64,000 bases of DNA, taken from assembly GCA_937950125.1 (NCBI GenBank), contig CALFEP010000039.1, positions 3,079-67,078 on the forward strand. The letters are read 5' to 3'. Of the stretch, positions 1,170-41,452 are shown in pieces (the stretch's first letter is position 1; every line of letters begins with the position of its first letter). The translations under genes were made by a program, and so were the position numbers. The stretch is from an uncultured Bacteroidota bacterium (lineage in GTDB: Bacteria > Bacteroidota > Bacteroidia > Bacteroidales > 4484-276). The notes beneath the pieces are model-generated. The model was not told the DNA's origin and made no database searches. It worked only from the letters and a program-made list of their open reading frames with translations.

Positions 1170-4082
1170 TTACCTTTTCAAAACTACTTTCTTCGTTTCC
1201 GAAAATTCGCTCCCGAAAAGCCTTACAAGGTAAACTCCTTCAGGAAAATCTGACAGATTTATGGTTCTGTTGGTTTTAGCTGAAGCGTTTAATTCATCAA
1301 AAACAACATTACCCTGAACGTTTAATATCTGCAAACGCGAATCAGCATCTGAGTTGATTGATACCGTAAATATTCCGGTTGAAGGATTCGGATAAACGGA
1401 AAAAATACTGCCGGAAGTTACAACAGTTTCTCCAGTATTTTCAAGCATATCCACCCTAACATCATCGATAAAAAGGTTGTTGCCAATAATTTTCACTGAT
1501 TCGAACATGATTTTTACGTTTTCATGACCAGCTGCCATGGAAACATCAATTGAATAACAATCGGCGCCAAAACCGGGGCCACACCAATCCTCGGGTGTTT
1601 GAGGGATGAAACTCTGGTTAAGTGGTTCACGTGTTACGAAATTACCTGAACCATCGTCGGCAACCGACATCAACCTTATCCAGGTATCACCACAATCGAG
1701 CGAAATTTTTACAACAAGTGAATCGGTGTATGTTAGATTGGTGCGTGCATAAGCATGTTTAAAATTCAGAAAATAATTGCCGGCAGCCGACATGTTTATT
1801 GGCGGGCTGATGAGCCTGTCGTGCTGGTTGAAAGCGTAATAATTGTAAAAATTAATGCCCGCTGCTTTATTTCCGGCACCACTTCCTTCAACATTCCACA
1901 CCGACCAGGTGACGCCGTTATCAGGATTTTCCACCGTCCAGCCGGCATCTTCAAGGGTAACCGATTCAAATGTGCCTACAAATGCCGGTGAGTTGATGCC
2001 TCCGGCAAAAATGTAATTCTCTTTGGTAAGCGCAGCGCTACCATTGGCATTGGTTGTTGTGAGTGTTACTGAAAATAATCCCGATTGGCTGAACAACACT
2101 TCAGGATTTTGAGATGTTGCTGAAGTCCCGTTCACGAATTCAAAGCCCGAGGGTGAGATTTCCCACAGCCAGCCGGTTGGACAAACCAGGGACTGATCCA
2201 TGAAATTTACAGTTCCGCCTGTACAAACCATTGTATCAGCCGCCATAAAGTGAACTTCCGGCATTGAACTGGTGCTGACCGTGATCATATTTTCGAAAAC
2301 TTTGGTATTGCTGCCATATTGGTTGGTTACAGTAAGGGTTACATCATAAACTCCAGCGTTTTGATACAAAATTCCTTCAGGATGCTGTTGATCCGATGTT
2401 GACGGCTGCCCGCCTTCAAATGTCCACAACCAGTTTTCGACTTCACAAACCGAATGGTCAGTAAAATCAACACTGCAGTTTTCGGTAATCAGACTGGCAG
2501 AAACAGAATAATCAGCAACCGGTGGTTTTTTCAGGTTCACTTCAAAAGTGATGGTCTGACCAAGTTCGCCAATGTTAAAAATATCCATTCCGGCAGGTTG
2601 ACCATTCGACAAAAAGCCCTGTGGATTCGTGTTGTCATTAAACTCAGTTCTTCCAAAATCAGCTGCAAAAGCTGCCTGACTGAGATTCCCGTTAACAGTG
2701 AGTGTTCCGTTGGGACGATAAATATACACCTCATCAGGGGGTCCCTGGGCATTTCCATTTCCTTCCTCAAGCAGATTTATTTTATAAATGATCAGGCCTG
2801 ATGAAGGCAATGTTCCTTCAAATGTTCCATCTTTTATCCGGTATTCGAGTACAAAAATATCGGTGACCGAATTGGGAGACGCAATTTTGAAGCAATTGTT
2901 AAACTCTGAGGTTAAGGGGTTTAAAGTATAAGTTCCGCACTCGGTAATTTCAGGAATCTCATCAATCCACTGGCCGTAACGGTATTTCATGTAGGCGCCC
3001 ATCAACTGGGGCGGGTTGTGATTGGCACACATTACGTCCCAATCACCCACCGCATCAACAGGTTGTGAAGTATAATGGTAGAGATCGGGAGCTCCAAGCG
3101 AATGGTTCATTTCGTGGCACAAAACTCCGTTACCACTCGATGTGAGATGATTTTGAATCTGGAAATTGTAATCGTAAACCCTTTTTCCGTTGATATAAAC
3201 ATTTTGACTGTAGAGTACCCAACGATGTGGCCAGAGCAGTGTTGCCCAGGCTGTGGTGGCTCCTTTTACAATAAAAACCATGTTGTCAACATTGCCGTCG
3301 TTGTTATAATCGATGTCCAAATCATCGGGTACCTCAGCTTCAACGTAAAGTATGGCACGTTTCAGCAATGCATGCTCCCTGGCAGCTACCTCACCTTCCT
3401 GGTAACCCTGTGGATTTGTAATAGGATCGTAAGGCATGTAATATGCCCTTGGATAAATATCCTGATACGAAATCACCGTATTGGCCGGTGGAACCGGGTA
3501 AAAAAACGAAGGTACGGAAAGCTTGTTGTAAGATGCAAAACGGAAATAATTCAACATGGAACTGTACCCTGGTTCCGTGTTATTGAACATATTGGTAAAA
3601 AGGGTAGTGTCTTCGGTGTATTCAGTCTGGTCGCTGAAACGGATATAAACCACCAGATTGTTAAGGGTTCCTATATTCCGACCGCTTCTGTAAGGTTTGT
3701 AACCGGGGTTTGTTGGTGGAACTGGCATCTGTGTTTTCAGGAAATCCGCCCGTTTTTGCTGCATTTTTTCCGGACTGATGTTTATCCAGGGCATAAGACC
3801 AACAGCCACCGGGTCAACCTCACCAACAACAAATGCAGAAGGTTTTAACATGCCGTTTTCGATAACAGCATATGTGTAAAAACCATTTTCGTGATTTTGA
3901 ATGATGGTAAAACCCTTGTCATCATGCAGCCAGTTGTAAAACTCATCACCAGTGGCCAGGCAGGTAATAATTGTTCCATCAGGCTGAGTGATGGTTTGTG
4001 GTTCGTTGGTAAGCCAGGCTGCTGATACCATCAGCTGGCTAAACAACAATAGTGTCAAAATAAAAAATTGAACATGCTTCAT
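1170..4082 (-). CDS. Secreted zinc metalloprotease (HExxH, M6/immune-inhibitor-A-like) with PKD-like repeats and a T9SS C-terminal sorting domain
   Basis: Has an N-terminal signal peptide and the motif LCHEMNHSLGAPDLYH. Repeated beta-sandwich segments occur (VYDVTLTVTN, LFSVTLTTTN). The C-terminus reads VYPNPSTGIFTVSI...GVYLVRL. Confidence 0.75.
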   Translation of the reverse strand: MKHVQFFILTLLLFSQLMVSAAWLTNEPQTITQPDGTIITCLATGDEFYNWLHDDKGFTIIQNHENGFYTYAVIENGMLKPSAFVVGEVDPVAVGLMPWINISPEKMQQKRADFLKTQMPVPPTNPGYKPYRSGRNIGTLNNLVVYIRFSDQTEYTEDTTLFTNMFNNTEPGYSSMLNYFRFASYNKLSVPSFFYPVPPANTVISYQDIYPRAYYMPYDPITNPQGYQEGEVAAREHALLKRAILYVEAEVPDDLDIDYNNDGNVDNMVFIVKGATTAWATLLWPHRWVLYSQNVYINGKRVYDYNFQIQNHLTSSGNGVLCHEMNHSLGAPDLYHYTSQPVDAVGDWDVMCANHNPPQLMGAYMKYRYGQWIDEIPEITECGTYTLNPLTSEFNNCFKIASPNSVTDIFVLEYRIKDGTFEGTLPSSGLIIYKINLLEEGNGNAQGPPDEVYIYRPNGTLTVNGNLSQAAFAADFGRTEFNDNTNPQGFLSNGQPAGMDIFNIGELGQTITFEVNLKKPPVADYSVSASLITENCSVDFTDHSVCEVENWLWTFEGGQPSTSDQQHPEGILYQNAGVYDVTLTVTNQYGSNTKVFENMITVSTSSMPEVHFMAADTMVCTGGTVNFMDQSLVCPTGWLWEISPSGFEFVNGTSATSQNPEVLFSQSGLFSVTLTTTNANGSAALTKENYIFAGGINSPAFVGTFESVTLEDAGWTVENPDNGVTWSVWNVEGSGAGNKAAGINFYNYYAFNQHDRLISPPINMSAAGNYFLNFKHAYARTNLTYTDSLVVKISLDCGDTWIRLMSVADDGSGNFVTREPLNQSFIPQTPEDWCGPGFGADCYSIDVSMAAGHENVKIMFESVKIIGNNLFIDDVRVDMLENTGETVVTSGSIFSVYPNPSTGIFTVSINSDADSRLQILNVQGNVVFDELNASAKTNRTINLSDFPEGVYLVRLFGSEFSETKKVVLKR

Positions 4083-4169
4083 AAATAGTAATTTAAGTTT
4101 TTAATAGTAAGTTCGACTTGGCAAAGTAATTAAAAATGCCGGCGACAGAAAAATAATTCAGTCAGGAAA

Positions 4170-10343: not shown

Positions 10344-11714
10344 ATGTCACTTCAAAAACCTTCCATTCCTAAAGGAACACGGGATTTTACGCCCGAAGAA
10401 ATGGTGAGACGGAATTATATTTTCGACACCATCAAACGAGTATTTCAGCTTTACGGCTATCTGCCCATCGAAACGCCTGCCATGGAAAACCTTTCCACCC
10501 TGTTGGGAAAATATGGCGAAGAGGGCGACAAGCTGCTTTTCAGAATCCTCAATTCGGGTGATTTTTTAAGCCAGGTTAAAGATGAAGATTTAGCCGGGAA
10601 AGACCCGGTGCAAATTGCAGGAAAAATTTCGGAAAAGGGTCTCCGTTACGACCTTACGGTTCCTTTCGCCCGCTTCGTGGTGCAAAACCGGAACGAACTT
10701 AATTTTCCTTTCAAACGTTACCAGGTTCAGCCTGTCTGGCGCGCCGACCGCCCGCAAAAAGGGCGCTACCGCGAGTTTTACCAGTGCGACGTGGACGTGA
10801 TCGGGAGCGACTCACTCCTGAACGAGGTGGAGTTGATTCAGATGATCGACGATATTTTCGAAAGGCTAAAAGTTGGGGTGGAGATAAAACTCAACAACCG
10901 GAAAATACTGGCCGGAATTGCCGAAACCATCGGCGAATCCGGAAAAATGACCGACATTACCGTCGCCATCGATAAACTGGACAAAATCGGACTCGAAAAG
11001 GTGAACGAAGAATTGGCCGAAAAAGGTGTTGCCACCTCAGCTATTCAAAAACTGCAACCCATCCTCACCATGACCGGTTCAGATCATCAAAAAATGGAAT
11101 TATTGGGAAACCTGCTGGCAAATTCTGAAACCGGCAAAAAAGGCATCGAAGAAATGAATTTCATTCTTAGCCGGGTTCCACAACTTGGGCTAACCGCCGG
11201 AGTTCAGTTAGACCTGACCCTTGCCCGCGGATTGAACTATTATACAGGCGCCATCATCGAGGTGAAAGCCCGTGATGTGCAAATTGGCAGCATTTGCGGT
11301 GGCGGGCGCTACGACGACCTTACCGGAATTTTTGGAATGCCCGGCACCTCAGGCGTCGGAATCTCTTTTGGCGCCGACCGTATTTACGACGTACTGAACG
11401 AACTCAACCTGTTCCCCGAAACCGGCGAAACCACCACACAGGTGTTTTTCGTGAATTTTGGCGAAGAAACCGAACAATACAACCTGCAAATCCTGCAAAA
11501 GCTGCGCAAAGCCGGCATTAATGCCGAAATGTTCCCCGAAGCTGCCAAAATGAAAAAACAAATGGCTTACGCCGATAAAAAGAAAGTTCCCTATGTGGTT
11601 TTGTGCGGCAACGACGAAATGCTGCGCGACATCCTCTCGGTAAAAAATATGAAAACCGGCGCCCAGGACGAAATGCGGCTAACCGATTTCATAATGCGGG
11701 TTACAGCAGATTAG
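10344..11714 (+). CDS. hisS: Histidine--tRNA ligase
   Basis: Class II aaRS motifs are present ([30 protein letters not shown]), with a C-terminal anticodon-binding domain. Confidence 0.95.
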
Positions 11715-11724
11715 CCACTGCATT

Positions 11725-11803
11725 AGCGATACCTTCGCTGAAAACGATAATATCGTTCCGGGAAAAGCAAGGCGATAGTATCGCTCCAGGCGATGCTATC
11801 GCT
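11725..11803. repeat. Cluster of four CGAT-core mini-palindromes; includes copy B of the 31-nt repeat (11773-11803)
   Basis: The four palindromes are AGCGAtacctTCGCT (11725-11739), AACGATAaTATCGTT (11743-11757), GCGATAgTATCGC (11772-11784) and GCGATgctATCGC (11790-11802). Confidence 0.75.
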
Positions 11804-11876
11804 GAAGGCCGACTTTTTGGGATGGATGACGGCATTTTCTGATCAAAGAAACAGATATTTCAAAGTAATTTTTCAG

Positions 11877-12437
11877 ATGGAAATACTCACCATTTCGCTC
11901 ATTGCGCTGGGATTAACCGGTGATACGCTTGCAGTATCGGTTTCAACGGGCCTTTCGCTCGCAAAAATCAGATTTGTGCAGGCAATGAAAATCGCCATTG
12001 TTTTGGCCGTTTTTCAGTCGTTGATGCCGGTTGTTGGCTGGTTTTTGGGTTTGCAAATCAAAGATCTGATAAAAGAATTTGATCATTGGATTGCATTTTT
12101 ACTGTTGGCCGCCATCGGTGGAAAAATGATTTGGGAAAGCTTTGAAAACTCTCATGGCGAATCGTCCTTTAATCCATTGAAATTAAATGTTTTAATTGGC
12201 ATTGCCGTTGCAACCAGCATCGATGCTTTGGTGGTGGGTGTTAGTTTTGCCTTCATCAATACCAACATCCTGCTATCTGTTGCTATTATTGGATTTTTCA
12301 CTTTTATGGTTTCCATGACAGGTGTGTTTATTGGAAAGAAAACGGGCGCCCTTTTCGGGAAAAAAGTTGAAATCATTGGCGGATTGATCCTCATTGGAAT
12401 AGGTATTAAAATACTGATAGAACACCTGTTGGCCTAA
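11877..12437 (+). CDS. mntP: Manganese efflux pump MntP (DUF204 family)
   Basis: Two-repeat small membrane protein with the LTGDTLAVS and TSIDALVVGVSF motifs. The ATG at 11877 is preferred because the upstream extension runs through the repeat region. Confidence 0.8.
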   Translation: MEILTISLIALGLTGDTLAVSVSTGLSLAKIRFVQAMKIAIVLAVFQSLMPVVGWFLGLQIKDLIKEFDHWIAFLLLAAIGGKMIWESFENSHGESSFNPLKLNVLIGIAVATSIDALVVGVSFAFINTNILLSVAIIGFFTFMVSMTGVFIGKKTGALFGKKVEIIGGLILIGIGIKILIEHLLA

Positions 12438-12541
12438 TGCAATGATTTTTTGTAGAAAAATCTGGTTAAGAACATCCGGATTGCCGTACATTTTTTTTGA
12501 AGGTATTGTAAGAAGTGACTTTTTGCTGAAGAAAAGCTCCT

Positions 12542-14686
12542 TTACCCTCCTTTCATGAAAAAGAGAGCAGTCGCCACCAGATTTAATGCCCCTAATAAAA
12601 ACCCCGTATTTGTGAGGCCACATGACGGAATAATTAACACCGAAACCAGCAAAGCCCCACCAGCCGAGCCCAATAAATCGGCGCTGTAGATTTTTGAGGC
12701 AACCGTTGATACATCATTTTTCTGCAAAACGGCCGCCATGGCAAAATGAACCGCCGTCAGCACACCCGAAAAAAACATCACCAGAAAAAGTAATAAAAGG
12801 ATGAAGGCTTCGGCTGCTTCCCATTTTACATGGAAAAGAACAATCGCAGGCAAAAACACTGCAATAAACCCGATCAATGCCTGGTTGATTGTGAATTTGC
12901 GGGGAGTGACTGACATCTTCAGCCAGCCCGGTAAAAATGCCCCAACGGCCAACCCTGCCATAAACGCCGCAATAAGCAGTGCCAGCGACTGGTAAAAATT
13001 ACCGAACAAAACCTGGAAAGCAAATAAAACCAGCACTTCGAGTGAGGTAGCTGTAAATCCCGCCACATACATACCCAGGGCGTACCTTTTAAGCAAAAAT
13101 GGGAATACGAGGATGAGTAAAACCACCGGCCAGACAACATTTCGCAGGTTCTGCCCGTACCACGACAGCCAGTAATTGATTGCAGCAAAATAAGCAACCG
13201 GATTAAAATCGTGATTGAGTTGGCTGGTATTTTCGATCTGGTTCAGAAGTTCAGTTCCCCGACTGGCAAGTTGCTGGTCGTCAAAATAATAATGGTTTAC
13301 ATACTCGTTTCCGATTCCTTTTTTCTTCAAAACAGTGGTAATCTGATGTGTCAGTTCTCCGTCAGAAGCAAGGATGCAATTGGTTTGCCCGGGAATGATC
13401 AGAACATTTTTAAAAACACTTTTCAACGAACTGACTACAACCGAGTACAAGAGACCAGTTGAGCCTCCTAAATAATTGCTACCTCCGGCAAGTGAAAAAG
13501 AAATTACTCCGCCACGCACCAGAATTTGCTTTACTTCCCGGTAAAATTCAACAGTAAAAAACCTGTTCAAACCTGCATTTCCCGGCGCCGGAACATTGAG
13601 CAAAACAGCATTGTACCGGTTTTTGGTTTTCTTTATAAAATGCCTTGCGTCGGAATAATGTGCAATCATTTTTTCAGGGAAAGAAAACCCGGTAATTGCA
13701 CTGACTGCAACAATCATTTCATGGTTTATTTCAACATAATCAACACGTTCGACGGGATATTTGTCGATTTGTGCCCACAACCCGGCAATATCACCCGAAA
13801 CAACCAGCACGTTTTCAGGTTTTTCGGTCTGTGCAAGGGCAAAATGAACGGTTTCTTCGTTGGTTGCCAGGTTATCAGTTGAAAACATGCTCACACCATT
13901 TTCAAAAAAATTGTACTGCTCACCACTTTTGGTAACAACAATATTTCCGTATGGGGTTTCTTTGTTTAATACAATTCTTTGGTTTCCAAAAACCAATGAT
14001 TTCGACTGGCTGTCGAAATCAAAAAACATGTTTACAATTACCCACATCAGCATGGTAATTATCAAGAGGTGCATTCCGGTGCGGCTGTAACCGGCTGAAG
14101 CCTGCATGAGCGTTGCCACGGTAAGGTTGGCAGCAGCTACCACAATCAGGGTTTGAAAAACACCGAAAAACTGCAGGCAAATGAAGGTAAAGACAAGGCT
14201 TCCGGCAATGCTTCCTGCGGCTTCCAGCCCATAAACACTGTGCGTTTTGGGTTTGTAAAAAAGTTTTGAAAAAGCGCTTGCAAAAAGTGTGAACAACATT
14301 CCCGAGAAAATGCAGAACAAAGCCATGATCAGAAATGAAAACAAAAAAGTGATGCCGGGACCAGGCAGTGTTCCTGGCGGAAGCATCAGGTTTTTCATCA
14401 GATAAATAGAAAACACGCTGAATGCAGGAAGCAGTGCAACCGCAACCTGAAGCCGGATTATTTTTCGGTTAAGATCACCTTTTTGCGAAAACCATTTTCC
14501 GGCGTAAGACCCAACGGCAGTGAGTAACATCCAGCAACTCAAAACAATTCCGGCTACCAGTTCATTTCCCGAAAAGATGTTCAGAAATTCGCGGAGAAAA
14601 ATCACCTGCACAATAAGCGCTGTAAATCCGGTAGTTATAACCGAAATCTGTAAAACATTTTCATTTTTTATCAGAAACCTGTACAT
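12542..14686 (-). CDS. Polytopic membrane protein with a central spermidine-synthase-like (SpeE-fold) domain flanked by two TM bundles
   Basis: The central region aligns by eye to SpeE: NVLVVSGDIAGLWAQIDKYPVERVDYVEINHEMI...YNAVLLNVPAPGNAGLNRFFTVEFY. Multiple TM helices sit on both sides. Confidence 0.7.
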   Translation of the reverse strand: MYRFLIKNENVLQISVITTGFTALIVQVIFLREFLNIFSGNELVAGIVLSCWMLLTAVGSYAGKWFSQKGDLNRKIIRLQVAVALLPAFSVFSIYLMKNLMLPPGTLPGPGITFLFSFLIMALFCIFSGMLFTLFASAFSKLFYKPKTHSVYGLEAAGSIAGSLVFTFICLQFFGVFQTLIVVAAANLTVATLMQASAGYSRTGMHLLIITMLMWVIVNMFFDFDSQSKSLVFGNQRIVLNKETPYGNIVVTKSGEQYNFFENGVSMFSTDNLATNEETVHFALAQTEKPENVLVVSGDIAGLWAQIDKYPVERVDYVEINHEMIVAVSAITGFSFPEKMIAHYSDARHFIKKTKNRYNAVLLNVPAPGNAGLNRFFTVEFYREVKQILVRGGVISFSLAGGSNYLGGSTGLLYSVVVSSLKSVFKNVLIIPGQTNCILASDGELTHQITTVLKKKGIGNEYVNHYYFDDQQLASRGTELLNQIENTSQLNHDFNPVAYFAAINYWLSWYGQNLRNVVWPVVLLILVFPFLLKRYALGMYVAGFTATSLEVLVLFAFQVLFGNFYQSLALLIAAFMAGLAVGAFLPGWLKMSVTPRKFTINQALIGFIAVFLPAIVLFHVKWEAAEAFILLLLFLVMFFSGVLTAVHFAMAAVLQKNDVSTVASKIYSADLLGSAGGALLVSVLIIPSCGLTNTGFLLGALNLVATALFFMKGG

Positions 14687-17269: not shown

Positions 17270-19498
17270 TTAATTTCCTACTTCCGACATAAATTTGATC
17301 CTCATCAACCTGATTTCCTCTTCATTAAACTCTTCTTCGCCCAATTCCTGGAGGGCATCTTCAATGGAATCGGATTCGGCTTCCCTGAAGTATTCGATGA
17401 TTTCTTCCTGATGATAAGTATCTACGTATTCGTTGATGTAGTAATTGATGTCGATTTTAGTGCCTGAAGCCACAATGCTTTCTATCTCAGTAAGCAATTC
17501 GTCTAACGTGAGGTTTTTGGTGAAAGCAATGTCTTCCAGCGAAAGTTTGCGGTCGATGCTTTTAATCACATAAACTTTCAGTCCCGACTTATTTACAACC
17601 GATTTCACCACCATGTCGTTGGGACGGATGATTTCGTTTTCCTCAACATAGTTTTTAATCAGGTCGAGAAATGGTTTGCCGTATTTCTGGGCTTTTCCAA
17701 CCCCAACGCCGGTTATCTGGGTCAATTCGTCCATCGAGATTGGGTACTGGATGGCCATATCTTCTAACGACGGGTCCTGGAAAATAACAAATGGCGGCAG
17801 GTTTTCTTTTCGTGAAATGGTTTTCCGCAAATCCTTCAGCATGGCAAACAGGGTTTGGTCGGCTGAACTGGTTTTGTGCGATGCTGCTATTGCTTCTTCA
17901 TCATCCTCCGGATTATCGTAGTCGTGGTCTTTGGTTAGCATGATTGAGTAAGGATGATCAAGAAATTCGTGTCCTTTCTTGCTTACTTTCAGCAACCCAT
18001 AATTGTCGATATCCTTGACGATGAGGTTAGCGATCTGCGCTTGCCGTATCACTGCATTCCAGAATTTTTCGTCATAATCCTCTCCTTTTCCGAACGATTC
18101 GATTCGGTGATGTTTATAGGATTTCAGAGCGGCTGTGTTTTTTCCAATCAAAACATTTACAATGTGTTTTGCTTTGAAAAGCTGTTTTACCTCAAGAATA
18201 CAATCCAATACTATTCTAACGTATCTTTTCCCTTCAAACTTTTCCTTAGGGTGCAGGCAATTATCGCAGGCTCCGCAATTTTCGTTCTTGTATTCCTCAC
18301 CAAAATAATGCAATAGCTGGCGATGGCGGCAAACGGAGGATTCGGCGTACGAAACTGTTTCATGCAGAAGTTGTTGTGCAATTTCCTGTTCAGCAACGGG
18401 TTTGCCTTTCATGAATTTTTCGAGTTTCTGAATATCGTCGTAGCTGTAAAAAGTAATGCAATTTCCTTCGCCATCATCGCGGCCTGCACGCCCGGTTTCC
18501 TGGTAATATCCCTCAAGGCTTTTGGGCATGTCGTGGTGGATAACAAAGCGAACATCGGGTTTGTCGATACCCATTCCAAAAGCAATTGTGGCAACAATAA
18601 CATCCACAGCTTCCATCAAAAATTTATCCTGGTTTTCCCTGCGGGTTTGCGAGTCAAGGCCTGCATGGTAGGGTAGTGCTTTAATGCCGTTCACCTGAAG
18701 TGTCTCGGCAAGTTCTTCTACTTTTTTGCGGCTAAGGCAATAAACAATCCCCGATTTTCCTGAATTTATTTTAATGTATTTGATGATGTCTTTTATCACA
18801 TCTTTGGTCTTGGGCCTTACTTCGTAATAAAGGTTTGGCCTGTCGAACGATGACATGAAAATGGTGGCATCAAGGATATTGAGGTTTTTCTGAATATCGT
18901 GCTGAACTTTTGGGGTTGCGGTAGCAGTAAGCGCAATAACTGGTACGTCCTGGCCGATTGACTCAATGATTGGGCGCAACCTGCGGTACTCTGGCCTGAA
19001 ATCGTGTCCCCATTCCGAAATACAGTGTGCTTCGTCAATAGCGTAAAACGAAATATTTATTCCTTTCAAAAACTCAACATTTTCGTCTTTAGTGAGCGAT
19101 TCAGGAGCTACATAGAGCAATTTGGTGATACCATTGGTCAGGTCTTCTTTTACCTGCATAATTTCCGGCTTTGAAAGCGAGGAGTTAAGAAAATGGGCGA
19201 TTCCTTCCTGAGCGCCAAAGTTGCGCAATGTATCAACCTGATTTTTCATCAGGGCTATGAGCGGAGAAATAATGATGGCAGTCCCGTCCTGTAACAATGC
19301 AGGAAGTTGATAACACATCGATTTCCCACCTCCAGTGGGCATAATTACGAAAGTATTGTTTCCATTTAAAAGGTTACGGATTATCACTTCCTGGTTTCCC
19401 TTAAAGCTATCGAAACCAAAAAACCTCTTCAACACTTTGTGAAGAGGATAATCCACTGTTTTGGTTTCAGCTATTTCCTGATTAAACATAGTATCCAA
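17270..19498 (-). CDS. recQ: ATP-dependent DNA helicase RecQ
   Basis: Helicase motifs are present (PTGGGKS, DEAHCISEWGHDFRPEY), together with an RQC zinc-binding Cys cluster and a C-terminal HRDC region. Confidence 0.95.
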   Translation of the reverse strand: MDTMFNQEIAETKTVDYPLHKVLKRFFGFDSFKGNQEVIIRNLLNGNNTFVIMPTGGGKSMCYQLPALLQDGTAIIISPLIALMKNQVDTLRNFGAQEGIAHFLNSSLSKPEIMQVKEDLTNGITKLLYVAPESLTKDENVEFLKGINISFYAIDEAHCISEWGHDFRPEYRRLRPIIESIGQDVPVIALTATATPKVQHDIQKNLNILDATIFMSSFDRPNLYYEVRPKTKDVIKDIIKYIKINSGKSGIVYCLSRKKVEELAETLQVNGIKALPYHAGLDSQTRRENQDKFLMEAVDVIVATIAFGMGIDKPDVRFVIHHDMPKSLEGYYQETGRAGRDDGEGNCITFYSYDDIQKLEKFMKGKPVAEQEIAQQLLHETVSYAESSVCRHRQLLHYFGEEYKNENCGACDNCLHPKEKFEGKRYVRIVLDCILEVKQLFKAKHIVNVLIGKNTAALKSYKHHRIESFGKGEDYDEKFWNAVIRQAQIANLIVKDIDNYGLLKVSKKGHEFLDHPYSIMLTKDHDYDNPEDDEEAIAASHKTSSADQTLFAMLKDLRKTISRKENLPPFVIFQDPSLEDMAIQYPISMDELTQITGVGVGKAQKYGKPFLDLIKNYVEENEIIRPNDMVVKSVVNKSGLKVYVIKSIDRKLSLEDIAFTKNLTLDELLTEIESIVASGTKIDINYYINEYVDTYHQEEIIEYFREAESDSIEDALQELGEEEFNEEEIRLMRIKFMSEVGN

Positions 19499-19792: not shown

Positions 19793-20761
19793 ATGAATTT
19801 ATCCTATCAGGAAATTCAACAAATTGCTGCACAAACGCTTAATATCGAATCGAAGGCCATTGGCAACCTTACCCGTTACATCGACGAGGATTTTGCCAGG
19901 TGCATCGAACTGATTTTCAAAAGCACCGGTCGGGTGATCATCACCGGTATTGGAAAAAGTGCTATTGTAGCCGAAAAAATAGTTGCAACACTGAATTCAA
20001 CTGGTACTCCGGCAGTTTTTATGCACGCTGCCGATGCCATTCACGGCGATTTGGGAATTATTCAAAAAGACGACATCGTCATTTGTATTTCAAACAGCGG
20101 CAACACGCCCGAAATCAAGGTCTTGATCCCATTTCTGAAAATGTCGGGGAATAAGCTGATTGGGATGGTTGGCAACCGTGAATCGTACCTGGCCCGGAGT
20201 GTAGATTTTGTTATCGAAACCACCGTCGAGCAGGAGGCTTGTCCCAACAACCTGGCTCCAACATCAAGCACAGCCGCACAAATGGCCATGGGCGACGCAA
20301 TTGCCGTCAGCCTTTTGGAATACCGGGGTTTTACCCCCGAGGATTTTGCCCGTTACCATCCGGGCGGAACCTTGGGAAAAAAACTTTTTCTCAGGGTTGG
20401 CGATCTTTATCCACAAAACGAAAAACCTATGGTTGACGCTGAGCAGGATATTCCCTCAACAATCATCGAAATTACTTCAAAACGGCTGGGAGCGACTGCA
20501 GTTATCAAAGACAACAAACTTATCGGGGTGATAACTGATGGAGACCTGCGTCGGATGCTTCTCGCCGGAAAACCGCTTTATTCGCTGAATGCCAGCGACA
20601 TAATGACAAAAAATCCAAAAACCATTGAACCTGAGAGCCTTGTCGCGCACGCCCTCGATATTATGCGTACCAATAACATCACGCAGCTTCTGGTAGCAGA
20701 AAACAATGAATATCTGGGGGTTATTCATCTTCATGATATTTTAAAAGAAGGCATTCTTTAA
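19793..20761 (+). CDS. kdsD: Arabinose-5-phosphate isomerase (KpsF/GutQ/KdsD family; SIS plus 2 CBS domains)
   Basis: SIS motif VIITGIGKSAIVAEK, then HPGGTLGKKL, with tandem CBS domains at the C-terminus. Confidence 0.9.
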   Translation: MNLSYQEIQQIAAQTLNIESKAIGNLTRYIDEDFARCIELIFKSTGRVIITGIGKSAIVAEKIVATLNSTGTPAVFMHAADAIHGDLGIIQKDDIVICISNSGNTPEIKVLIPFLKMSGNKLIGMVGNRESYLARSVDFVIETTVEQEACPNNLAPTSSTAAQMAMGDAIAVSLLEYRGFTPEDFARYHPGGTLGKKLFLRVGDLYPQNEKPMVDAEQDIPSTIIEITSKRLGATAVIKDNKLIGVITDGDLRRMLLAGKPLYSLNASDIMTKNPKTIEPESLVAHALDIMRTNNITQLLVAENNEYLGVIHLHDILKEGIL

Positions 20762-23475: not shown

Positions 23476-23484
23476 CATAGGGCA

Positions 23485-23589
<105 letters not shown>

Positions 23590-29669: not shown

Positions 29670-29918
29670 CAAATGACAAAATTCAAATAACAAGTAAATT
29701 CCAATTTGAGTACAAACCACCCCGAACAATAAACGACAAACAAGGAACCCGCCCTTCGACAGGCGTTCGACTGAGCTAAGCCGAAGTCTCAGGGCTCGGT
29801 GAGCTGAACAACGAACAAGGAACAAGGAACAAGGAACAACAAACAAGGAACCCGCCCTTCGACAGGCTCAGGGCTCGGTAACCCGAACAACAAACAACGA
29901 ACAAGGAACAACAATAAA
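29668..29918. repeat. Heptanucleotide-periodic array (GAACAAS units, degenerate A-rich units at the 5' side) embedding two copies of a hairpin core
   Basis: gaacaac gaacaag gaacaag gaacaag gaacaac aaacaag lies between core 1 (29748-29799) and core 2 (29851-29878). It resumes as gaacaac aaacaac gaacaag gaacaac aataaag. Confidence 0.85.
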
Positions 29919-40850: not shown

Positions 40851-41194
40851 TGATGCAAAACTTACCCGAAAATGGTGTGAAACTGAGGATTTACATTGGC
40901 GAATCCGATACCTGGAAAGGCGAAAATCTTTCGACGGCTATTGTGTTGAAGGCAAAAGAGATGAAACTTGCGGGAGCTACTGTTTTCAGGGGCATTATGG
41001 GTTTTGGCGCCAACAGCCACCTTCATACAACAAAAGTGCTGAGGCTTTCGGAGGATTTGCCGGTTTTGGTTGAAATTGTTGACACAGAGGAAAATATAGA
41101 AAAAATAATGCCTTTCATCGAAGAAACTGTAAAGCAGGGCATGGTAACTCAGGAACGGGTGAATGTGAAACTTTACAGGGCGGAGAGGCAGTAG
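40850..41194 (+). CDS. DUF190 (PII-like) protein, commonly crcB-associated
   Basis: [11 protein letters not shown]...[11 protein letters not shown] matches the DUF190 pattern. Its start overlaps the crcB stop by 1 nt. Confidence 0.75.
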
Positions 41195-41446
41195 GCAGTG
41201 GGAAGTATGCAGTAAGCAGTAGGCAGTGGGCAGTGGTTTCGACAAGCTCAACCACCAGTGAGTTGTGGGCAGTAGGCAGTAGGCAGTAGGCAGTGGGCAG
41301 TAAGCAGTAGGCAGTAAATTACCTCCTAAGACTGGCGACTGGCAACTGAAGACTGCCGACCGGAGACTGCCAACTGAAGACTGCCGACTGGAGACTGCCA
41401 ACTGAAGACTAACGACTTACGACTAACGACTTACGACTTACGACTA
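41185..41446. repeat. Composite heptanucleotide-periodic array: GGCAGTR units, a hairpin core, GGCAGTR units, a 28-nt (4x7) GACTGCC-containing repeat x2, then CGACTTA/CGACTAA units
   Basis: Read directly. The 28-mers at 41349-41376 and 41377-41404 differ at one base. The array starts within the last codons of the DUF190 CDS and ends 7 nt before the next ATG. Confidence 0.9.
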
Positions 41447-41452
41447 AATAAA

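Follow-up and report, generated by a model that had tools for sequence, protein, structure and literature searches.

A multi-copy hairpin unit with a constant loop and interchangeable stems in a Bacteroidota contig and in genomes of many phyla

Hairpins are used as origins or nick sites by HUH endonucleases, as in the case of Rep of rolling-circle replicons and of IS200/IS605 ends. The SDRs of the Nostocaceae (SDR1-8), attributed to Elhai and colleagues (2008), are reportedly 21-27 nt long, embedded in tandem heptamer arrays and nested within themselves; their hairpins are said to be kept by compensatory changes, and they were reportedly proposed to be the smallest mobile elements, an RNA intermediate being favoured. 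REP elements and REPINs owe their mobility to RAYTs, which are tyrosine transposases of the Y1/HUH type (Bertels & Rainey, 2011, PMC3116915), and the GTAG superfamily of REPs has been described by Di Nocera et al. (2013, PMC3733652). According to PMC5861425, the SDRs were not found outside Nostocaceae, a restriction that PMC3116915 bears out. The Rfam family RF02901 is Aggregatibacter sRNA 41 (Oogai et al., 2017, PMC5909427), and the words repeat, multicopy and paralog are absent from this source paper.

The window, i.e. the whole 64-kb stretch of DNA analysed here, contains a total of four hairpin units, all of them intergenic and located in gaps between plus-strand genes (Table 1); the source of the contig is a Bacteroidota-like metagenome organism that has Por_Secre_tail genes. 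Units 2 and 3 had been reported in a first-pass annotation as two hairpins in which unrelated but pairing stems enclose a common loop, and they were recovered at exactly the coordinates given there, with the loop T-TCGACARGCTC-A common to both and stems that are unrelated yet complementary. The third copy of that annotation, at 29748, is the same unit as unit 2, its loop being split after TTCGACAGGC by a 24-nt insert in reverse orientation, the reverse complement of which is another copy of the motif. Units 1 and 2 are parts of a ~103-bp segmental duplication and the independent stems of the window are therefore three in number, namely GCCC/GGGC, GTGGTT/AACCAC and GAC/GTC. The units are single or nested, no inverted doublets being seen in the 64-kb window, and their 3' tag is a degenerate form. 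Direct reading of the sequence confirms the translations that had been pointed out (FDRL/FDKL and LSLSKG/LSLSKP). ORFs running through copies yield peptides such as FDKLR and LSLSKG, which may recur in predicted hypothetical proteins.

Table 1. Hairpin units and heptamer arrays of the window
Feature	Position	Strand	Description
Unit 1	29748-29799	+	CCCGCCC-TTCGACAGGC[24-nt insert]TCA-GGGC-TC-GG; flanks are those of unit 2, loop interrupted
Nested 24-nt unit	29765-29788	-	GAC-TTCGGCTTAGCTCA-GTC-GAAC; defined by comparing the duplicated copies 29748 and 29851; boundary +/- 1 nt
Unit 2, intact hairpin	29851-29878	+	CCCGCCC 29851-29857, loop TTCGACAGGCTCA 29858-29870, GGGC 29871-29874, bulge TC, GG 29877-29878
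Unit 3, intact hairpin	41233-41255	+	GTGGTT 41233-41238, loop TCGACAAGCTC 41239-41249, AACCAC 41250-41255; stem unrelated to that of unit 2
Heptamer array GAACAAG/GAACAAC	29806-29914	+	Tandem Repeats Finder; encloses unit 2, follows unit 1
Heptamer array GGCAGTR	41186-41316	+	Tandem Repeats Finder; encloses unit 3
Opposed heptamer array GACTGCC/GACTAAC	41330-41448	+	Tandem Repeats Finder; approximately the reverse complement of the GGCAGTR array; outside the hairpin unit

When up to one mismatch was allowed, the 11-mer had six matches in the window (0.99 expected), two of them exact; at the four 1-mismatch 11-mers (1812, 22940, 58305 and 60007) no hairpin was supported by the covariance model, which was built from a gap-free alignment of 149 copies. 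This model scored unit 2 at 34.9 bits and unit 3 at 31.1 bits, both sequences being in the training alignment, and gave a sub-significant match to unit 1 at 29744-29785 (E=0.09). A covariance-model search had been proposed in the first-pass annotation as a source of more copies; even with filters off, it brought to light no further copies in the 64-kb window. The best sub-threshold match (18808-18858, minus strand) lies inside a 742-aa RecQ-like ORF, where it encodes SFDRPNLYYEV, and was set aside as a chance resemblance. Using DNA parameters, the window hairpins are the minimum-energy fold on both strands, and unit 1, insert included, still adopts a nested hairpin on the minus strand. With energies of -3.7 to -5.4 kcal/mol (z-scores of -0.3 to -0.8), the window hairpins are weak and do no better than shuffled sequence, so that stability alone is no proof of these hairpins; given large loops and short stems, they are barely stable unaided. 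For the 29851 copy, another fold is available on the minus strand (GAGCCUGUC-GAAG-GGCGGGUUC, z = -2.5), but it was dropped because it is impossible in the 41233 copy. The case from the window only is thin; three copies are insufficient to prove covariation, and the significance rests on copies outside.

The phase of the heptamer arrays around the intact hairpins is restored on removing 37 or 44 nt around unit 2 (GAACAAG array) and 32 or 46 nt around unit 3 (GGCAGTR array), and in two loci elsewhere (L183 and L173) on removing exactly 24 nt. Insert lengths derived from array phase vary (22, 24, 24, 28, 32 and 37 nt), the 5' and 3' limits of inserts within arrays being ambiguous by a few bases; a fixed 24-nt ruler was therefore rejected, 24 nt being recurrent and not universal. 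The minimal unit is ~22-37 nt long, and 24 nt in the best-defined cases. Overall, the motif was found near heptamer arrays in 16 cases where 4.2 were expected, an approximately fourfold excess. The GGCAGTR array and the opposed array together make up a long imperfect hairpin (41180-41450, z = -3.4). Heptamer arrays occupy three intergenic gaps of the window, the one at 23480-23577 being without a hairpin; they resemble cyanobacterial STRR arrays, and unrelated heptamer arrays were seen in relatives (L256, L258-L260). Three sister contigs of the same population (L002-L004, ENA ERZ724080-84 assemblies) match the window exactly in other respects but begin inside the repeat/array region, at 159 or 255 bp upstream of the DAGK-like gene. 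These breakpoints indicate that the repeat breaks short-read assemblies.

Outside the window, the 15-mer CTTCGACARGCTCAG gave at least 120 matches in viral contigs and at least 120 in species-representative genomes, these copy counts and the taxa obtained with them being lower bounds since the collection scans required a C-G closing pair. The taxa among the genome matches listed comprise Bacteroidota, Chloroflexota, Cyanobacteria, Alpha-, Beta- and Gammaproteobacteria, Actinomycetota, Nitrospirota, Planctomycetota, NC10, Armatimonadota and Saccharibacteria, and the motif is also found in viral and GTA-like contigs. The repeat family is multi-copy and present in many phyla. A search of the literature with 12-13-mers of the motif and with the peptide strings matched only primers and unrelated papers; the family is apparently undescribed, in agreement with the earlier suspicion of a widespread uncharacterised element.

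Pairing in the stem was assessed in several sets of these copies. Among the 138 unique viral-contig matches listed, the three positions outside the required C-G pair were Watson-Crick in 82, 67 and 46%, compared with 15-38% in shifted-register controls, and three out of three further Watson-Crick pairs were present in 60 of the 157 genome matches listed (1.6% by chance). The bare 11-mer, unselected for the closing pair, yielded 17 further copies in viral loci against 1.1 expected, with T-A, T.G and C-G closures and stems such as GCCATT/AATGGC and CTGTGGT/ACCACAG. For the 149-copy alignment, a covariation score of 0.400 was obtained, as against 0.185 +/- 0.011 for shuffled alignments, none of 500 shuffles equalling it, and scores of at most 0.19 in slid-partner controls; the pair 10-26 is CG in 61, GC in 45 and AU in 10 copies and the pair 9-27 is UA in 43, CG in 38 and GC in 24. 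The stem is maintained by compensatory change across many copies, which upholds the previous interpretation of the swapped window stems as the covariation of a selected structure.

The stem comprises 3-6 bp of arbitrary sequence, while the loop has fixed ends (TTCGRC ... GCTCA) and a centre of AAG, AGG or TTCG. In most phyla the full unit reads CCGTTCG-nnnC-TGAGCYTGTCGAA-Gnnn or, on the other strand, nnnC-TTCGACARGCTCA-Gnnn-CGAACGG. The ends TTCGRC and GCTCA are kept and the centre is changed in the sister loops TTCGACTTCGCTCA, TTCGGCTTAGCTCA and TTCGGCTACGCTCA, and TTCGGCTWAGCTCA is found as a sister loop alongside TTCGACTTCGCTCA. The 3' tag is GAACGG in most phyla, with variants GAGCGG and GAGG; most Bacteroidota have TGAC(A) instead, as do low-GC contexts elsewhere. 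The GA[AG]CGG tag 3' of the forward loop is far better conserved than its 5' partner. Of the isolated internal stem mismatches, 26 were A.C and 4 were G.T (p = 6e-5). One recurrent variant (CCGTTC-A...C-GAACGG) contributes most of this A.C excess, which could reflect inheritance instead of selection. These mismatches are located mostly at the junction of variable and conserved stem, and the excess of A.C over G.T implies that a G.T or G.U wobble is permitted on the TGAGCYTGTCGAA strand.

In the 120 genome loci listed, 57 clusters of at least two copies within 150 nt were identified, mostly inverted doublets with halves 10-100 nt apart and outer CCGTTCG/CGAACGG arms that pair. The halves often have dissimilar inner stems (e.g. 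GCCC/GGGC beside GTGC/GCAC), indicating that one half is not a simple mirror copy of the other. Nesting was observed in the window, in L009 and in L044, three contexts that are unrelated to one another; the boundaries of the ~24-nt inserts in L009 and L044 were read by eye. Three tandem 24-mers with a 24-nt period are present in L140. The nested pair of L009 (~12400-12520, minus strand, ORF 11474-12725), GTGC-TTCGAGAC[GCCATTTCGACAGGCTCAATGGCT]CCTCA-GCAC-GAACGG plus a partial third, adds ~30 in-frame residues to a GTA/phage portal protein in comparison with six homologues. These in-gene units resemble Rickettsia palindromic elements found in genes. Further arrangements include partial tandem stutters of half-units that adjoin full units (L155, L228, L231, L195 and L130), with 14-15-nt periods such as CCTGAGCTTGTCGT, and arrays of 5-6 units with a period of ~54 nt in Microbacterium mangrovi. 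In L087 (~3960-4110), each of two units caps a perfect palindrome of 16-19 bp whose sequence is unrelated, an arrangement which fits either insertion at a pre-existing palindrome apex or inverted flank duplication on insertion.

Megaplasmids of Sphingobium carry the unit at up to 16 places per replicon, none of them annotated. On megaplasmid AP027312.1 of Sphingobium sp. TomMM7A, the doublet constitutes the core of a 148-nt MITE (L263 ~19991-20138) with terminal inverted repeats of ~28 nt (TTAGAGCRTCGYGCCTT...). Comparison of L263 with L264-L267 revealed that two strains (TomMM7A and TYG74) have the element at this site and three (TYG73, MM15 and TYG46) have an empty site, in which GGGGAATTAG directly adjoins GCAGAG. 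The MITE copy of TYG74 is 191 nt long, with 24 additional nt in the left loop right after TTCGACA and 19 additional nt at the right unit. The demonstrated mobile unit in Sphingobium is the 148-nt MITE carrying the doublet and not the bare hairpin. Related strains differ in the presence or absence of repeat-carrying elements and in ~24-nt loop indels; the indels could be due to template switching at quasi-palindromes and not to transposition.

On balance, the hairpins probably represent an interspersed palindromic repeat that is very small and non-coding, REP/SDR-like and of the nature of mobile DNA, and not a gene-specific RNA switch. It is the orientation-neutral, doublet, nested and in-ORF copies, together with the absence of the unit in three relatives, that point to a dispersed DNA repeat of this type. 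The alternative of a structured RNA motif (for instance a stabiliser between cistrons, a site of processing or protein binding, or a portion of an sRNA), selected as RNA and acting in the window on the co-directional flanking genes, is considered unlikely. A conserved loop on a covarying stem is the classic RNA signature, and all three outer window units are in sense orientation with plus-strand genes on both sides. However, ~85 single intergenic copies, assessed with crude gene calls, show no preferred direction with respect to their flanking genes (27 co-directional, 29 anti-directional), and inverted doublets, nesting and copies within genes are all frequent. G.U pairing on one strand is in line with the A.C/G.T asymmetry, but the strand so favoured is antisense to the window genes, no U-run follows the hairpin, and the hairpins are thermodynamically marginal. 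Of the RNA or ssDNA structure put forward in the first-pass annotation, the selected structure is thus retained, whereas a gene-linked RNA function is disfavoured by the balanced orientation and by the doublet, nested and in-ORF copies.

The orthologous Wzy-DAGK spacer, located in relatives via the neighbouring MutS-like protein, bears on the same question. In L245 (78-80% protein identity) it contains two units, at 1247-1283 and 1301-1322. The first has the stem GCCC...GGGCTCGG as in the window, with a 16-nt perfect palindrome (TCCCGCACGTGCGGGA) replacing the loop centre, and the second has the stem ACCC/GGGT, a compensatory change, and the sister loop TTCGACTTCGCTCA. The persistence of a same-stem unit at this site fits some retention or selection, and is in favour of an RNA motif; against this, the spacer of three more distant relatives (L246-L248, 55-62% identity) consists of a bare 40 nt and has no unit.

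With regard to Rfam, no family was found at the gathering threshold in the window, none at E <= 10 on the motif region, and nothing above threshold in 18 plus 8 loci with canonical doublets, which counts against the structured-RNA alternative. The Rfam check suggested at first pass accordingly assigned no family, but was not wholly blank, as doublets weakly match positions 7-96 of RF02901 (AaHKsRNA41) at 25-37 bits compared with a gathering score of 97. These positions are themselves a doublet, cggcuuG-CUGAgCUUGcCGAAG ... UUCGgCAAGcUCAg-Caagccg, within an sRNA family defined by RNA-seq in Aggregatibacter (PMC5909427), and this is a point on the side of RNA. RF02901 is, however, a 187-nt species-level sRNA family and has no match to the single units of the window.

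E. coli REPs are bound by gyrase, IHF or Pol I, and the repeat might likewise be a host-useful DNA site, an architectural element of REP type to which a housekeeping protein binds and which selection maintains, as opposed to selfish mobile DNA. We regard this explanation as quite improbable. The near-invariant loop across phyla suggests a conserved reader, the unit persists at the orthologous site in L245, and CGTC-type REPs are also without a dedicated transposase (PMC3733652). The distribution is nevertheless patchy, the 33-nt consensus unit having no match in 5,426 E. coli genomes and occurring in only 19 of 72,556 plasmid records, so that it is rare on plasmids except large secondary replicons; furthermore, its positions are not conserved among relatives, and nesting and tandem 24-mers look like proliferation and not like placement. 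The 86-nt doublet of L217 (Sphingobium-type) had no match among isolate phage records.

Replication by-products, with hairpins and nested inserts arising at quasi-palindromes and heptamer arrays through slippage or template switching, and with descent and mutation bias accounting for the likeness between genomes, are very improbable, because the half-unit tandem stutters beside full units (L155, L228, L231 and L195), the differing sizes of the loop indels and the association with slippage-prone heptamer arrays would be accommodated, but one 11-13-nt loop in distant phyla with unrelated flanks and the dispersed multi-copy occurrence within a replicon would be left unexplained.

Several known classes of element were discarded on sequence features. 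An intrinsic terminator was rejected, the loop being 11-13 nt long and no T-run following the plus-strand hairpins, with terminator-like calls only on the minus strand, against the genes; attC, dif, uptake sequences, hammerhead-like cores and tRNA T-loop/D-arm were dropped as their defining sequence features are absent.

For a dispersed DNA repeat, the reading preferred here, the combination of a conserved loop on a weak hairpin, one folding strand and single-stranded targets would favour trans-mobilised ssDNA hairpins. The unit may act as single-stranded DNA, and the strand carrying TGAGCYTGTCGAA is proposed to be the one that folds because the recurrent G.T wobble is kept on that strand. A trans-acting protein that reads loop and tag might hold the marginally stable hairpin; a conserved loop on a weak stem would be the pattern expected of a protein-read site on extruded single-stranded nucleic acid, comparable to HUH endonuclease origins and to the hairpins of IS200/IS605 and REPs. 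The most likely enzyme class would be an HUH/tyrosine-type ssDNA transposase, and new copies would enter single-stranded DNA in the loops of existing hairpins and in slipped heptamer arrays. The window copies would most likely be passengers without a gene-specific role.

A candidate mobilising enzyme was sought in 240 loci, in which the gene calls are crude, longest-ORF approximations. All-against-all clustering of 7,570 ORFs identified no protein family enriched within 4-7 kb of the motif, the ORF clusters found near it consisting of ABC ATPases, epimerases, response regulators and GTA/phage head genes only. No IS200-like ORF was found near copies using phmmer (4-7 kb flanks), a weak test given the approximate IS200 TnpA query. 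The ORFs between distant motif pairs were like capsid genes or spurious frames.

A bolder proposal is that the TTCGRC...GCTCA hairpin is a pan-bacterial nano-transposon with a ~24-nt minimal unit, moved by a widespread enzyme that would recognise the hairpin loop on single-stranded nucleic acid, and preferring its own loops and heptamer arrays. We advance it tentatively and consider it rather doubtful; if true, no known family of mobile elements would be smaller or more broadly distributed, and there might be a mechanistic link to the origin of heptamer (STRR-like) arrays. The constancy of the 11-13-nt loop across phyla while the stem drifts implies a common loop reader, and the SDR phenomenon of ~24-nt nested units in heptamer arrays is extended beyond Nostocaceae. 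In practical terms, the repeat can be mistaken for sRNAs, part of RF02901 being its doublet, and a covariance model of the repeat would be useful as an annotation mask.

Compared with REPs and REPINs, which are imperfect palindromes of 20-40 nt, mostly extragenic and multi-copy, the repeat has units of 22-37 nt and likewise shows a short conserved tag at one hairpin end, frequent inverted doublets able to form larger hairpins and occasional in-gene copies. It differs in that REPs keep the stem and a GTAG tag and have short loops, whereas here the 11-13-nt loop is conserved and the stem is free; a GTAG or CGTC head is absent, the flank consensus being GA[AG]CGG, TGAC or GAGG 3' of the forward unit. 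In addition, no RAYT-like gene was found near copies (4-7 kb flanks, 240 loci), and REP families are mostly species- or genus-specific, while one loop is here common to many phyla. The CGTC REPs, including Neisseria dRS3 and Rickettsia RPE-4/RPE-6 (PMC3733652), likewise occur in Alphaproteobacteria, Bacteroidetes and others, are mostly head-to-head dimers with no dedicated transposase known, and are in some cases located inside larger palindromes and genes; in contrast to the present repeat, their stems of 8-9 bp start with A-T pairs and enclose only 4-5 nt, and they have CGTC, TGTC or CCTC as the head and CCA as the tail, none of which is found here. At HUH sites the loop sequence is different, and no HUH gene was found near copies (4-7 kb flanks); the likeness, a functional analogy only, lies in a conserved loop or flank on a stem of free sequence that is read as single-stranded DNA. 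The SDRs have been reported only in Nostocaceae, whereas the motif described here is present in Bacteroidota, Chloroflexota, Proteobacteria, Actinomycetota and others, and an RNA intermediate was reportedly favoured for them by Elhai and colleagues, whereas the evidence here leans to ssDNA without deciding the matter. By description only, it is nevertheless the SDRs that the nested 24-nt unit of the window and the units lying inside the GAACAAG and GGCAGTR arrays resemble.
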